Below are positions 20,790 to 25,567 of a DNA stretch of 31,645 bases, piece after piece; positions within the stretch are counted from its first letter, which is position 1, and each line of letters begins with the position of its first letter. The stretch comes from an uncultured Mageeibacillus sp. GTDB taxonomy: Bacteria > Bacillota > Clostridia > Saccharofermentanales > DTU023. The translations under genes were made by a program, and so were the position numbers. Below the pieces are notes generated by a model, which saw only the letters and a list, made by a program, of their open reading frames with translations, searched no databases and had not been told where the DNA came from. The stretch lies in assembly GCA_964524395.1 (NCBI GenBank), contig CAZGCS010000003.1, positions 1-31,645 on the forward strand, in the 5' to 3' direction.

Positions 20790-21941
20790 ATGAACCCACA
20801 AGCGCGCTCCCAAACCATCATCATCGCAGCGGGCGGTACAAGCGGCCATATTTATCCCGCCTTTGCCATCGCTACGGGCATCCGGAAAGTACTGCCGGCT
20901 GTCCGTTTTATTTTCTGTGGCGCCCCGGGCGGCCTGGAACAAGCCATGGTCGAAGCGGAGGGTTATGATTTTCAGCCCATTCCCGCCCAAAACATGCCTA
21001 ATCGCAGGGACAGGCGCTACTTCAGCTGGGCATGGAACAATGTCAGAGGTGTGCTCCGAAGCAGGGCACTGCTGAAGAAGGAGGCCCCACAGCTGGTTAT
21101 TGGAACGGGCGGCTTTGTCTCGGCCCCCTTGATCGCTGCCGCACGTTGCCTGAAGATTCCTTTCCTCCTGCACGAACAAAACGCGGTCCCCGGCAGGGCC
21201 AACCGTCTGTTTGCCCGCTGGGCGCGGGCCATCTTCATCAGCTACGAATCGAGCCGGTCCTACTTTCCCGCCAACGACCGCGTAATTTTCAGCGGAAATC
21301 CGGTGCGACCGCTCTTTTTCGAGCTTGACCGGACCGGAGCCAGAGAAGCGCTGGGTGTTGACAAGGATGCTTTTCTGGTCATGGCCATGGGCGGCAGCCT
21401 GGGTTCCAGAACCATCAATACCGCCATCGCCCGCCTGGATGAGTCTGGTGGCTGGACAGCCTTCCTGGAAAAATATCCCCGGCTGCGGCTGGTAGTCAGT
21501 ACCGGCGTTCAAAGCTCTGTCGATTTCGCAAGAGAAATTTCGGCGTTGCCAGGGGTGCTGGCTGCGGAACCTTTCCTGCATGACGCCCCCTACTGGATTG
21601 CCGCCTGTGATCTTTTTATCGGCCGGGCGGGTGCCATGACTTGCGCGGAAATCTCCTCACAGGGAAAGCCTTCAGTCCTTATTCCCTTTCCGCATGCGGT
21701 TGATGACCATCAGAAAGAAAACGCCCGGGCCATGGAAGAGGCCGGTGCGTCCCTGGTTTTCAGTGACGGGGATTTCAACAGCCGCCAGCTGCTCGAAACG
21801 CTGGATCATCTGATCGCAAGGCCAGACCTGCTGGCAGCCATGAGCGAAAGCGCCCGCCGCTGGGCGACACCCGACGCGGCTGGTACCATCGCCGGCATGG
21901 TCGCAAGTGTGATCGAACAAAATGAAACGGTCAACGCCTAA
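20790..21941 (+). CDS. murG: Undecaprenyl-PP-MurNAc-pentapeptide GlcNAc transferase
   Basis: GGTSGHIYP, GTGGFVS, HEQNAVPGRAN, GNPVR, GGSLGS, GRAGA, HQKENA. Confidence 0.97.
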   Translation: MNPQARSQTIIIAAGGTSGHIYPAFAIATGIRKVLPAVRFIFCGAPGGLEQAMVEAEGYDFQPIPAQNMPNRRDRRYFSWAWNNVRGVLRSRALLKKEAPQLVIGTGGFVSAPLIAAARCLKIPFLLHEQNAVPGRANRLFARWARAIFISYESSRSYFPANDRVIFSGNPVRPLFFELDRTGAREALGVDKDAFLVMAMGGSLGSRTINTAIARLDESGGWTAFLEKYPRLRLVVSTGVQSSVDFAREISALPGVLAAEPFLHDAPYWIAACDLFIGRAGAMTCAEISSQGKPSVLIPFPHAVDDHQKENARAMEEAGASLVFSDGDFNSRQLLETLDHLIARPDLLAAMSESARRWATPDAAGTIAGMVASVIEQNETVNA

Positions 21942-22917
21942 AAACTCCCGCCAGAAGAAGGCAGGTTCAAATCACCACGATTACCCCTTGCGAAACAAGG
22001 GCCGGTCCGATCCCTATCCCTCCATTTTCCAGCCATCCCCCTTTACGGACGAAAGCCGGAAAAAGAGGGCCAAAGAGAGAAGACGCCACCGCTTCGCTGG
22101 CTGGCCTTCGAGGTTTTTGCTCCTTTTGGCCCTGCTGCTGTCCTTGTCCATCCTGCTTGCTTTCCTGCCCCAGTTCACCATCGAAACCATCACGGTGTCC
22201 GGTACCCGTCTGGCCGATCAGGCAACAATAAAAGCCCTGGCAGGGATCAAGCAGGGCCAGCATTTCCTTCCCCGGTTGGGGGGTACCCCGGGCAGGTTCC
22301 TGACCCTGCGCTATGGCAGCCTTGAAGAGGAGATTCTGGCGGCCTGTCCCCTCATCCGCCAGGTCCGGGTGCGTTTCCGTTTTCCCTCAACTCTGGCCAT
22401 TACAGTGGAAGAAAAGGTGGAGATACTGGCCGTTCGCATATCCGGCGGCTACGCCCTGATTGACCGTGACCATGAAATCCTGAGGATTGCGGAGGATATT
22501 GACTTTGCCCTGCCTGTCCTGGAGGGCGTGACTGTCCAGGCCCGGGCGGTGGCGGGTGAATCACTAGAGGTGGAAGACCCCTCCCAGCTGACCGCGGCCT
22601 CAAAGCTGATTGCCGGACTGATCCAGCATGACCGGACGGACATGACAGGTCTGCAGTTGATGTCACTGGTCCGGCAGTTCAGGCAGATTGAGGGTCCCCT
22701 CTTTTTGCTCTTTATCCCTTTGTCGCAAGGTGGGGAGATACGTGTTAGACTTGAGGACAACAGATTACTGCAGGAAAAATTATCCTTGCTCGGCTACCTG
22801 CTTACCGGTGAGGACCTGATCCCTAAGGCGGCAGGAGAACTGGATTTAAGCGGTGAGACCGCCTATTTCCGCCCCGATGCGGGCGGTAGCAGTGCAAGCG
22901 ATTATTTCTTGCCCTGA
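21922..22917 (+). CDS. divIB: Cell division protein DivIB/FtsQ
   Basis: Basic cytoplasmic N-terminus, one TM, POTRA-like segment (FTIETITVSG...VRVRFRFPSTLAITVEE); position after murG. Confidence 0.85.
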   Translation: MKRSTPKNSRQKKAGSNHHDYPLRNKGRSDPYPSIFQPSPFTDESRKKRAKERRRHRFAGWPSRFLLLLALLLSLSILLAFLPQFTIETITVSGTRLADQATIKALAGIKQGQHFLPRLGGTPGRFLTLRYGSLEEEILAACPLIRQVRVRFRFPSTLAITVEEKVEILAVRISGGYALIDRDHEILRIAEDIDFALPVLEGVTVQARAVAGESLEVEDPSQLTAASKLIAGLIQHDRTDMTGLQLMSLVRQFRQIEGPLFLLFIPLSQGGEIRVRLEDNRLLQEKLSLLGYLLTGEDLIPKAAGELDLSGETAYFRPDAGGSSASDYFLP

Positions 22918-22947: not shown

Positions 22948-23349
22948 ATGCTGATAATTATCGGTCTTCTGATCGGTTTACTCTTAGGTCTATTTGCCAA
23001 TATCCCCCTCCCTGCCAGTATGGTGCCCTATCTGGCTGTCTTTACCCTGGTCGGCGCAGAAGCCTTGACCGGGTCATGGAATGCGTTGCAGGCAGGTGAT
23101 TTCGAACCGGGCAAATTTCTGATCGAGTTTGCGGCCAATGTGATCATTGCGGCTCTCATCACGGCTCTGGGCAATCAGATGAAATACGATTTTTCCCTGA
23201 TCGTCTCCTTCATTTTTGCCTACAGACTTTTTCGCAATATCAGTTTTATGTCCCGCAAGCTTCACAAAGACATCCAGACACGACGCCTGAACCGGAGCCG
23301 CAAAAAGGAAGAGGGCTTGCAGGAGAAACCGGAAAGGCCGGCTCAATGA
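22948..23349 (+). CDS. sbp: Small basic protein Sbp (DUF1290) membrane protein
   Basis: GLLIGLLLG...PYLAVFTL...FAANVIIAALITALG...RLFRNIS follows the recalled B. subtilis Sbp pattern; conserved position between divIB and ftsZ. Confidence 0.8.
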   Translation: MLIIIGLLIGLLLGLFANIPLPASMVPYLAVFTLVGAEALTGSWNALQAGDFEPGKFLIEFAANVIIAALITALGNQMKYDFSLIVSFIFAYRLFRNISFMSRKLHKDIQTRRLNRSRKKEEGLQEKPERPAQ

Positions 23350-23409: not shown

Positions 23410-23534
23410 ACTACGCGTGTAGCCGTCTCTTTGTTCAGGCTGACAGCAGGGCTATTCCCGCGGTATAAGCCAGTCTTGGCGGCGGATACAAAAGGCAACT
23501 GCTTTGTATGAAAAGATGAAAGGAGTTGCAGAAC

Positions 23535-24911
23535 GTGGCGGATTATGATTACAACATGGGGTTAGGTGATGGCCTTTACGCGACGATCCGGGTCATCGGG
23601 ATCGGCGGAGGTGGTTGCAATGCTGTCAACCGAATGATTGAGGGCGGTGTCCAGGGCATTGAATTCATCGCGGTCAATACCGACCATCAGTCCCTGCGGC
23701 ATTCGAAAGCAGGCGAAACCATCCGGATCGGTGAAAAAGTGACCCGCGGTCTGGGCGCCGGTGCACAGCCGGAGCTGGGCCAGAAAGCGGCCGAGGAGAA
23801 TATCGAGGAAATATCCAAGGCACTGGAAGGATCTGACATGCTCTTCATCACGGCCGGCATGGGAGGCGGTACCGGTACCGGGGGGGCACCCGTCATCGCA
23901 CAAGTAGCCGAAAGGCTTGGGATCCTGACTGTTGCTGTGGTGACCACGCCCTTCCGCTTCGAGGGCTCGCGCCGGCGGCAGAATGCCGAGAAGGGGGTTC
24001 GTGAACTCCAGCAACATGTTGATTCACTGATCGTGGTTCCCAACGACAAGCTGCTTGAGATCGCCAGCGATGACACGACTCTTGACGAGGCTTTTAACCT
24101 GGCCGACCGGGTTCTCCAGTATGGTGTTTCCAGCATTTCCGATCTGGTGGCCGTACCCGGTTTGATCAACCTGGACCTGGCGGATGTCAGACGGGTTATG
24201 ACCAATGCCGGCGTCTGCCATATGGGCATCGGGCGGGGAAATGGGGAGAGCAGGGCAGCCACAGCTGTTAAACAGGCCATGACCAGCCCACTGCTTGATA
24301 CCACGATTGACGGCGCCCAAAGCATCATCATCAACTTCACCGGCGGCCATGATATGAAGATGAAGGAAGTCAATGAGGCCGCTTCCCAGGTCCGCGAAGC
24401 CGTTTCTCCCGATGCAGAGATTATCTTCGGTGCGGTAATCGACGAGAATATGCAGGACGACCTGGTTATTACCATCATTGCGAGCCGCTTTGGCGGTGAC
24501 AGCATGCCGGCCCGCGCTGCTCGCGCAGGACACGTCCAGGCGCCGGCCCAACCGGCTTTCAGCTTACCGTCCAGACAGGCACAGCCAACCGGGTCGCGGT
24601 CGGCCATTGATGATTTGCCCGAATTCCTGAGACCTCCACGCGGCGGGCAGCTGAGGGGCCGCGAAACCGGCCAGGCAATGCAGGGAACCGGGTTCAGCCG
24701 GTCCAGTCAGCGGCACGACGACCAGGCCATGTCCGACATGATTGACCGGGCAACGGAAAACGCGGCCAGACATAACCGCAACATCCCCCGCGTGCTTGAT
24801 GAGGCTCCTCTTGACGGGACAGGCCCCACTCCCGAAAGACCGCGGACGGGGGGTAAACAGGAAGGCAGGGTCCTGCCCTGGTTCCTGCGGGATGATGACA
24901 TGGATCGCTGA
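23535..24911 (+). CDS. ftsZ: Cell division GTPase FtsZ with an extended C-terminal region
   Basis: VIGIGGGGCNAVNRM, AVNTD, GLGAGAQP, tubulin signature GGGTGTG, T7 loop INLDLAD. Start set at GTG 23535, 9 nt after AAGGAG. Confidence 0.99.
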   Translation: MADYDYNMGLGDGLYATIRVIGIGGGGCNAVNRMIEGGVQGIEFIAVNTDHQSLRHSKAGETIRIGEKVTRGLGAGAQPELGQKAAEENIEEISKALEGSDMLFITAGMGGGTGTGGAPVIAQVAERLGILTVAVVTTPFRFEGSRRRQNAEKGVRELQQHVDSLIVVPNDKLLEIASDDTTLDEAFNLADRVLQYGVSSISDLVAVPGLINLDLADVRRVMTNAGVCHMGIGRGNGESRAATAVKQAMTSPLLDTTIDGAQSIIINFTGGHDMKMKEVNEAASQVREAVSPDAEIIFGAVIDENMQDDLVITIIASRFGGDSMPARAARAGHVQAPAQPAFSLPSRQAQPTGSRSAIDDLPEFLRPPRGGQLRGRETGQAMQGTGFSRSSQRHDDQAMSDMIDRATENAARHNRNIPRVLDEAPLDGTGPTPERPRTGGKQEGRVLPWFLRDDDMDR

Positions 24912-25042: not shown

Positions 25043-25567
25043 GTGAAATGCCCTAACTGTGAAGGCAATGACGACCGGGTCGTCGATTCCAGGCCTTCGG
25101 AGGATGGCAATACCATCCGCCGCAGGCGTGAGTGTCTGCTGTGCGGAAGTCGTTTTACCACTTATGAGAAACTTGAAAATATCCCTTTGATGGTCATCAA
25201 AAAAGACGGAAGCCGCCAACCTTTCGACCGGCAGAAGCTCCTGATCGGTATCATGAAAAGCTGTGAAAAAAGGCCGGTAACCACCCAGCAGATTGAGGAG
25301 CTGATTGACCAGGTGGAACGGGCGGCAGGTAACGCCTTGAAGAGGGAGATCAGCACTTCAGAAATCGGGGAATTAGTCCTGAAACAACTGAGAAAAATAG
25401 ATGAAGTCGCCTACATCCGTTTCGCGTCGGTGTACAGGGCTTTTGGAGATATACGCTCTTTTTTCAAGGAGATCTCCTCCCTGCTCCAGAATGATGGCGG
25501 GGAAAGCGGACAGGATCCTGAAGAAGGTGGTTTTCTTGATCAGGCCTGGGATGAAGAGCAGACATAA
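25043..25567 (+). CDS. nrdR: Transcriptional repressor NrdR
   Basis: Zinc ribbon MKCPNC...VVDSR...IRRRRECLLCGSRFTTYE, ATP-cone (VIKKDGSRQPFDRQK), AYIRFASVY; SD AAGGAGG. Confidence 0.98.
   Translation: MKCPNCEGNDDRVVDSRPSEDGNTIRRRRECLLCGSRFTTYEKLENIPLMVIKKDGSRQPFDRQKLLIGIMKSCEKRPVTTQQIEELIDQVERAAGNALKREISTSEIGELVLKQLRKIDEVAYIRFASVYRAFGDIRSFFKEISSLLQNDGGESGQDPEEGGFLDQAWDEEQT

Follow-up and report, generated by a model that had tools for sequence, protein, structure and literature searches.

The C-terminal peptide (CTP) of the division protein FtsZ belongs to the most conserved docking codes of bacteria and is treated as a single terminal pad shared by all partners. The canonical tail of the Firmicutes, as found in Bacillus subtilis, consists of a disordered linker, the peptide DDTLDIPTFLRNR and a short basic end (NKRG). 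The SepF dimer of Corynebacterium glutamicum offers two identical pockets for the C-terminal domain of FtsZ (2:2, Kd of approximately 15 uM), and its residues K125 and F131 contact the FtsZ peptide, with the exchange K125E/F131A abolishing the binding (PMC7118173). In Staphylococcus aureus a repeated, Arg-rich motif immediately after the CTP binds GpsB (PMC11062636), while the FtsZ of Mycoplasma group 1E binds the membrane via an amphipathic helix (bioRxiv 10.1101/2023.08.29.555414). For Escherichia coli FtsZ secondary linker sites for ZipA and ClpXP have been reported. A survey of 304 Firmicutes found the fewest division proteins in Mageeibacillus indolicus, for which both FtsA and SepF were reported missing and compensating components were suggested (Garcia et al., 2021; PMC8136486). 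Here, we describe the ftsZ gene of an uncultured Mageeibacillus sp. (order Saccharofermentanales), encoded in a stretch of 31,645 nucleotides (assembly GCA_964524395.1, contig CAZGCS010000003.1, positions 1 to 31,645), which is called the window throughout. Its product carries two CTP-like peptides, an internal one, which is the ancestral CTP, and a terminal one, which is found throughout the order.

The protein was identified as FtsZ by its Pfam matches to Tubulin (PF00091, 7.6e-52, residues 21-180) and FtsZ_C (PF12327, 8.5e-32, residues 229-320) and by the GGGTGTG signature in its translation. Approximately 40 amino acids behind the globular core, the tail contains the first peptide, IDDLPEFLR (nucleotides 24606-24632, residues 361-369; context SRSAIDDLPEFLRPPR), subsequently called CTP-1. 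After further 79 amino acids the second peptide, VLPWFLR (nucleotides 24870-24890, residues 449-455; context KQEGRVLPWFLRDDDMDR), CTP-2, is reached shortly before the stop codon at 24909-24911; a total of 92 residues follows R369. An earlier note, made from the letters of the window, had given these coordinates, sequences and spacings, and the translated open reading frame reproduced them exactly. Using 200,000 shuffles of the 139-amino acid tail and the pattern [ILVM]P.F[LM][RKQ], at least one motif was found in 0.12% of the shuffled tails and two or more in none (<5e-6). Chance was excluded as the source of the double motif.

Both peptides were kept in 21 of 22 genomes of the same genus, with the frame of the 22nd genome broken by a stop. 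In the 21 readable tails they take the forms S[TA]IDDLP[DEY]FL[RQK]P and GR[VT]LPWFL[RQK]D[DE][DE], and the claim of the earlier note that the tail bears two CTP-like peptides was borne out for every one of them. Mean column conservation within the genus was 0.88 for CTP-1 and 0.89 for CTP-2, compared to 0.33-0.54 for the linkers. The invariant residues are encoded by many synonymous codons (5-6 for Leu, 3-4 for Pro), which indicates purifying selection and not recent common descent. Within the genus this selection acts strongly on both peptides. An assembly or frameshift artefact was considered and rejected, since 21 independent genomes of the genus and more than 150 sequences of the order show the same uninterrupted frame with the two motifs. 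A recent tandem duplication of the peptide found no support either, as nothing is shared by the flanks beyond LP.FLR and the motifs agree at the DNA level (12/18 bases, judged by eye) to the extent expected from shared amino acids.

For the question of which peptide is the older one, 35 outgroup tails were taken from Clostridia with the longest frames deliberately included. One of them was masked by a run of X, leaving 34 readable tails. All 34 carry a single peptide, D-[LI]-[DE]-I-P-[TPS]-F-L-R-[RK]-N-R, at the extreme C-terminus, with a short, mostly basic end behind it and the stop 6-12 residues past F-L; in the main sample this peptide stands 29-52 amino acids away from the core. Among 150 Clostridia genomes the FtsZ frames of the outgroups were mostly 340-430 amino acids long, compared to 450-613 amino acids in the order. 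Many outgroup alignments to the window FtsZ end at residues 369-375 and thus exactly at the internal motif, in agreement with the earlier assignment of CTP-1 to the normal position. The internal IDDLPEFLRPPR resembles the outgroup peptide in its distance from the core and in its flanks, acidic before and basic after. Because of this shared offset and these shared flanks the internal peptide represents the ancestral canonical CTP, and the 92 residues behind it represent an order-specific extension.

The two peptides depart from the canonical rules in opposite ways. CTP-1 fits the sequence rule D-[ILV]-P-x-F-[LM]-[RK] (D363-L-P365-E-F367-L368-R369) and fails the position rule, since the sequence continues far beyond the 6-12 residues seen after F-L in the outgroups. 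CTP-2 occupies the terminal position and fails the sequence rule despite its P-x-F-L core (L-P-W-F-L). Two residues before its Pro, at P-2, 85 of 154 tails have Ile and 46 have Val, none has Asp, and the residue before that is Arg. Furthermore, the flanking charges are inverted, basic before and acidic after, and Trp stands in the variable position. Two other families of Clostridia were observed with a single terminal CTP carrying Trp in the Phe position, FEIPPWMSSDR (L251, G102, family f34) and LSLPPWLSTLK (L257, G177, family f52), and thereby deviate from the canonical code in a further way.

The distribution of both peptides was followed in 157 unique tails of the order, with residue-level conservation derived from 80 order sequences and the receptor inventory described below from 41 genomes. 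The terminal P-W-[FI] peptide was present in 154 of the 157 tails, the three exceptions looking truncated or aberrant. The internal [ILVM]P.[FY][LMI] peptide was found in 113 tails, compared to 0.77 expected from shuffling. The check proposed in the earlier note, an alignment of tails from relatives for conservation of both motifs, turned out positive in the genus (21/21) and, across the order, in the majority of tails. For the terminal peptide the order consensus reads [KR][KRQ]xG-R-[IV]-L-P-W-F-[LM]-Q-D-[ND]-D, with P and W invariant, R at 94%, L at 97%, D(+5) at 96%, N or D at +6 and D(+7) at 73%. In window numbering, P451 and W452 were invariant and R448, L450, F453 and D456 conserved in at least 90% of the 80 sequences; in CTP-1 this level was reached by P365 and L368. 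For the internal peptide it reads DD-[LVI]-P-[DE]-F-L-[RS]-[PG], with a median distance of 43 residues from the end of the core. The earlier note had regarded the first peptide as the norm and the terminal copy as the extra. For the order the roles are reversed, as the Trp peptide is nearly universal and the canonical one is dispensable, its loss or decay having occurred at least 5-6 times.

A DNA pattern for R-x-L-P-W-F-L-Q-D was scanned against one genome per species for 185,579 species and yielded at least 120 matches. Among the matches listed, 47 were complete FtsZ frames and approximately 8 were ends of FtsZ truncated at the edge of the locus; short chance frames made up the remainder. 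The FtsZ matches listed come from genomes labelled as Saccharofermentans, Mageeibacillus, Fastidiosipila or 'Saccharofermentanales' and from metagenome-assembled genomes labelled as Clostridia/Oscillospiraceae, mostly from digesters. In a tree of the FtsZ core the order formed one clade with a support of 100 versus 25 outgroups. All FtsZ among the scan matches listed fall inside this clade, and outside FtsZ only chance matches were seen. The extension of approximately 90 residues is specific to the Saccharofermentanales (class Clostridia), most members of which are uncultured, and was gained in the ancestor of the order. Two further searches contributed little. A phmmer search with the tail alone against 1.84 billion representative proteins returned only 2 uninformative fragments. 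A class-level PWFxQD DNA pattern gave 5 matches, none of them at ftsZ, and was too strict for the R, E, T or N variants found in the six order genomes of the sample. As a side observation, the motif scan repeatedly matched short frames of almost identical sequence (SRFLPWFFQDIRVCPFPSP) in phyla unrelated to each other (L092, L109, L130, L043, L120). They probably stem from a conserved RNA gene translated in the wrong frame and are unrelated to FtsZ.

Tails with both peptides occur in all three major subclades of the order, and at least 6 changes between the states "both" and "terminal only" are needed on the FtsZ tree. Relics such as DDLDFVMPQ, EDIDFVMPQ, ADEFPELLRP, DDGFPNLL and NDGFNFLK were found at the old CTP position. 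The terminal peptide was never lost, its most reduced form being KPWFMFGKDGQ in one genus. With the canonical CTP as the ancestral state, the most parsimonious reading is a founder of the order with both peptides, followed by repeated loss of the internal one. In genus g4 of family f2 (L161, L162, L245-L247) the FtsZ tail ends in the reduced variant KSAKPWFMFGKDGQ and an internal CTP is missing; the same genomes show the most altered SepF pocket region (RVEPTPVKTTFVCTP). A co-variation of the reduced tail with the altered pocket is possible.

The sequence between the peptides had been described as further disordered sequence. The pLDDT values of the AlphaFold 2 (AF2) model are mostly below 50 in the tail, but three conserved islands, one of them a predicted helix, do not fit the description of plain disorder (Table 1). 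The helix at residues 394-419 is conserved family-wide as AMADLIQKVSESTRR. Within the tail the pLDDT was raised at residues 361-370 and slightly, to approximately 50, at 451-453. No confident docking of the tail to the core was readable from the full-length AF2 model. The islands at residues 388-428 (window positions 24687-24809) are likely further interaction sites.

Which receptors are available for these peptides? Among the 41 order genomes, none contained an FtsA (TIGR01174) above the cut-off, the weak matches being MreB; in the source genome (G000) the weak match to the FtsA model is a 336-amino acid MreB on contig C65. Likewise, MinC_C was absent from all 41 genomes, and no EzrA above the cut-off was found in any of them. 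SepF (PF04472) was detected in 39 of the 41 genomes and is the only known CTP receptor encoded in the order. From the partners named in the earlier note (FtsA, SepF, EzrA and MinC among them) SepF therefore stood, while FtsA, MinC and EzrA dropped out. The ftsA gene, noted before as missing from the cluster, is missing from the whole source genome and from all sampled genomes of the order as well.

The proposed connection of the unusual tail with the absence of ftsA did not hold. Using an E-value of at most 1e-20, an FtsA-model match was obtained for 63 of 150 Clostridia genomes and not obtained for 87. FtsA loss as the cause of the new tail was rejected: FtsA is patchy in the Clostridia, and family f9, lacking an FtsA match, possesses an ordinary single-CTP tail, so FtsA loss alone does not explain the new tail. 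In many Clostridia a FtsA-like protein of 580-770 amino acids is encoded far from ftsZ (90-118 bits; e.g., G125:C13:230202-231236), either beside or in place of the normal FtsA adjacent to ftsZ. Sbp (DUF1290), another suggested partner, was considered with its basic tail as a counterpart of the acidic FtsZ end. This idea received no support, because the C-terminal tail of Sbp is not conserved in the order and outgroups whose FtsZ tail is canonical have sbp upstream of ftsZ as well.

The SepF of the source genome is encoded outside the window (Table 1). It scored 54.6 bits against PF04472 (cut-off of 27) and aligns to B. subtilis SepF (3ZIH) with 6e-9. The protein starts with the amphipathic N-terminus MSNFLNKLFGR (hydrophobic moment of 0.64), followed by an extremely acidic, Tyr-rich linker, and the amphipathic M.NFLNKLFG is kept across the order. 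SepF of the order is divergent, with 55-83 bits versus 85-114 bits in most other Clostridia (loci L035-L040, L220-L239). The contact residues were mapped by alignment through the C. glutamicum chain 3P04. K125 of C. glutamicum corresponds to Ala124 of the source genome SepF, and F131 corresponds to Phe130 and is thus kept. At the K125-equivalent column 27 of 28 outgroup SepFs have Lys (motif IQKVS); in the order it is non-basic in 25 of 27 sequences (Pro in 12, Ala in 11, otherwise Thr or Gln). A Pro invariant in the outgroups (residue 91 in the source genome) is replaced in all 27 order sequences. No order-specific gene adjoining sepF was found, the neighbors being YlmE-like, an HlyD_2-like membrane protein and a Fumble-type pantothenate kinase.

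Tentatively, and with a likelihood that we place just short of even, we favor the reading that both peptides dock SepF, with the terminal peptide as the essential main site and the internal one adding avidity. Both peptides would act as short linear docking motifs for SepF, which would be bound to the membrane via its N-terminal amphipathic helix. The essential anchor site would be provided by the terminal Trp peptide and an auxiliary second one by the internal canonical peptide. With two ligands approximately 80 residues apart, one tail could fill both pockets of a SepF dimer or bridge neighboring dimers, and such a bivalent tail would raise avidity and bundling or cross-linking in a divisome without FtsA, MinC and EzrA. 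The acidic end would be part of the recognized epitope and not the source of the bundling seen with basic CTVs (C-terminal variable regions). The terminal peptide is taken as the essential site because it was never lost and because an intact SepF is still encoded in the lineages that have lost the internal one (G023, G024, G026, G029, G038 and genus g4). If SepF still anchors FtsZ in these lineages, the terminal peptide must be read there. Also in favor of this reading are the alteration of the SepF pocket alongside that of the tail, at the equivalent of the FtsZ-contacting K125, and the capacity of the C. glutamicum SepF dimer for two FtsZ C-terminal domains.

We are aware of several observations which weigh against this reading. 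CTP-2 lacks the Asp at P-2, where Ile or Val is found, and shows inverted flanking charges, and might therefore be a misfit to a SepF-type pocket. Two genomes, G032 and G035, keep Lys or Arg at the K125 equivalent yet carry the same terminal peptide. Since many SepF columns conserved in the outgroups are changed, the lost Lys is part of a wider divergence, and it is not specific proof of a co-evolution with the tail. Other bacteria relying on SepF only (Actinobacteria and FtsA-less Clostridia such as f9) manage with one CTP. Finally, the three additional conserved islands of the tail imply further interactions.

A separate partner for the Trp peptide is the main and a serious rival, although we judge it rather unlikely. 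The internal peptide would dock SepF, while the terminal Trp/acidic peptide would dock a different, order-specific partner, either a new membrane anchor or a new regulator. The features by which CTP-2 departs from canonical CTPs (no Asp at P-2, the Trp, the order of basic and acidic flanks) argue for it, as does a conservation so extremely residue-specific that it is typical of a dedicated protein-peptide interface. It would also agree with the "yet unidentified components" proposed for M. indolicus (Garcia et al., 2021; PMC8136486) and has a precedent in the S. aureus CTV binding GpsB (PMC11062636). However, the SepF of the lineages without the internal peptide would then have no FtsZ ligand, and no candidate partner is encoded beside ftsZ (DivIB, Sbp, NrdR) or beside sepF (YlmE, pantothenate kinase, HlyD-like). 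The change of the SepF contact lysine in the very same order also speaks against this rival.

An action of the terminal peptide on lipid or in cis, instead of on a protein partner, is improbable, be it as an autoinhibitory contact of the tail with the core, as a modulator of lateral filament association through its acidic end or as an interfacial membrane anchor. In favor of such roles, charge in the CTV tunes FtsZ bundling, as reportedly described by Buske and Levin in 2012. With its Trp, Phe and Leu, an ILPWFL stretch behind a basic cluster could be placed at the membrane interface, Mycoplasma FtsZs without a CTP bind membranes by a terminal amphipathic helix (bioRxiv 10.1101/2023.08.29.555414), and tail-core binding was reported for B. 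subtilis FtsZ (PMC12747378). On the other hand, CTP-2 has a helical hydrophobic moment of 0.14-0.38 compared to 0.64 for the SepF membrane helix and a net charge of -1, its hydrophobic core is immediately followed by 4-5 acidic residues, and lipid binding would not call for single residues (R, L, P, W, D) to be invariant. The AF2 model with its pLDDT of approximately 50 at residues 451-453 also showed no confident docking of the tail. Direct membrane binding by the Trp copy, as considered in the earlier note, is unlikely on the same grounds of moment, acidic flank and residue-specific conservation. Very improbable is a functionless relic of the old C-terminus as the internal motif of the window, since, even if its decay in approximately 28% of the order's unique tails, independently in several lineages, makes it dispensable in some backgrounds, D-D-L-P-x-F-L is invariant in 21 genus genomes while the flanking linker drops to 0.33-0.54, its codons have turned over (up to 6 Leu codons) and its 113 occurrences in the order face an expectation of 0.77.

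Going beyond docking to SepF by both peptides, the terminal Trp peptide might form an orthogonal FtsZ-anchor pair together with a remodelled SepF pocket or with a new anchor. The D-I-P-x-F-L code would then be in the process of being phased out, from intact (in this genus) via relic to absent. We regard this as a possibility of some weight that stays below an even chance. If true, it would be a documented natural replacement of a near-universal FtsZ docking code and would explain how the Z-ring is anchored in a lineage reported to lack FtsA and SepF. The divergence of SepF, found in 39 of 41 order genomes, may explain its reported absence from M. indolicus, and the data suggest a solution of this puzzle with a SepF that is present but divergent and an FtsZ side of the interface that was rebuilt. 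Neither a second CTP-like peptide nor a canonical CTP turned internal was found described in the literature searched, and no paper was found to mention both "Saccharofermentans" and "FtsZ". An entire order with the canonical peptide internal, a different second one terminal and the canonical one decaying in several lineages would amount to a natural rewiring of Z-ring anchoring. It offers a natural series for what the peptide code must keep, for the co-evolution of receptor and peptide, and for the question whether a multivalent tail can compensate for a stripped divisome.

The ftsZ gene stands last in a dcw cluster (division and cell wall), in which mraZ, rsmH, the gene for a class B penicillin-binding protein, a Mur ligase gene, mraY, ftsW, murG, divIB, sbp and ftsZ follow each other, with nrdR thereafter. 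No ftsA is present between sbp and ftsZ in the gene list of the window. The source genome (1.53 Mb, 81% complete) gave a single FtsZ match. The start of ftsZ is ambiguous, with a TTG at 23526 (461 amino acids) versus the public gene call of an identical protein starting 3 codons later (458 amino acids). The AF2 model of the core reached pLDDT values of mostly 80-97, with a stretch of low confidence around residues 175-215. Coordinates are summarized in Table 1.

Table 1. Coordinates of the ftsZ gene, its encoded tail elements, the neighboring genes and sepF; positions refer to the window unless a contig is given.
Feature	Position	Strand	Remarks
ftsZ	23526..24911	+	461 aa; open reading frame list, Pfam; sole copy in source genome (G000)
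Globular FtsZ core (GTPase domain residues 21-180 and FtsZ_C residues 229-320)	23586..24485	+	Pfam, AF2
Linker 1 (residues 323-357)	24492..24596	+	genus mean column conservation 0.54; pLDDT <50
CTP-1 (residues 358-372, RSAIDDLPEFLRPPR)	24597..24641	+	ancestral canonical C-terminal peptide, now internal
Conserved island TGFSRSSQR (residues 388-396)	24687..24713	+	conservation 0.87; order-wide sGFH.VG or GGFGL
Predicted alpha-helix (residues 394-419, core AMSDMIDRATENAAR)	24705..24782	+	AF2, block pLDDT up to 81
Conserved island PRVLDEAP (residues 421-428)	24786..24809	+	genus and order alignments
CTP-2 (residues 447-458, GRVLPWFLRDDD)	24864..24899	+	order-specific terminal Trp peptide; 154/157 order tails
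Acidic end DDDMDR (residues 456-461)	24891..24908	+	replaces usually basic CTV
divIB/ftsQ (POTRA_1)	21922..22917	+	Pfam
sbp (DUF1290)	22948..23349	+	Pfam; directly upstream of ftsZ
nrdR	25043..25567	+	Pfam; directly downstream of ftsZ
sepF (G000)	contig C70:2863-3387		174 aa; outside window

Compared to the B. subtilis tail, the FtsZ of the window shares the globular core and the linker of approximately 40 amino acids, followed at the usual distance by a docking motif of the type acidic-D-[LIV]-P-x-F-L-R-basic. It differs in that this peptide is internal and approximately 90 more residues follow, with three islands, a second P-x-F-L at the terminus and an acidic end. With the C. glutamicum FtsZ-SepF system (PDB 6SAT/6SCP; Sogues et al., 2020; PMC7118173) it has in common that SepF is the sole known CTP receptor and membrane anchor, with an N-terminal amphipathic helix, a dimeric core and the F131-equivalent Phe (F130 in the source genome). 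Here, however, the K125 equivalent is replaced, by Ala in this genus and mostly by Pro in the order, the Pfam score of SepF is unusually low, and each FtsZ chain offers two candidate ligands, the terminal one without the Asp. The FtsZ of Mycoplasma group 1E (bioRxiv 10.1101/2023.08.29.555414) resembles the present case as a lineage-specific replacement or supplement of the C-terminal anchoring peptide, but its amphipathic helix has no counterpart in CTP-2, which lacks amphipathicity and has acidic residues behind it. The S. aureus CTV (PMC11062636) likewise provides a lineage-specific extra docking motif C-terminal to the CTP and thereby a multivalent tail. In contrast to that motif, the extra one described here is a CTP-like hydrophobic peptide, placed approximately 80 residues further on and combined with an acidic end.

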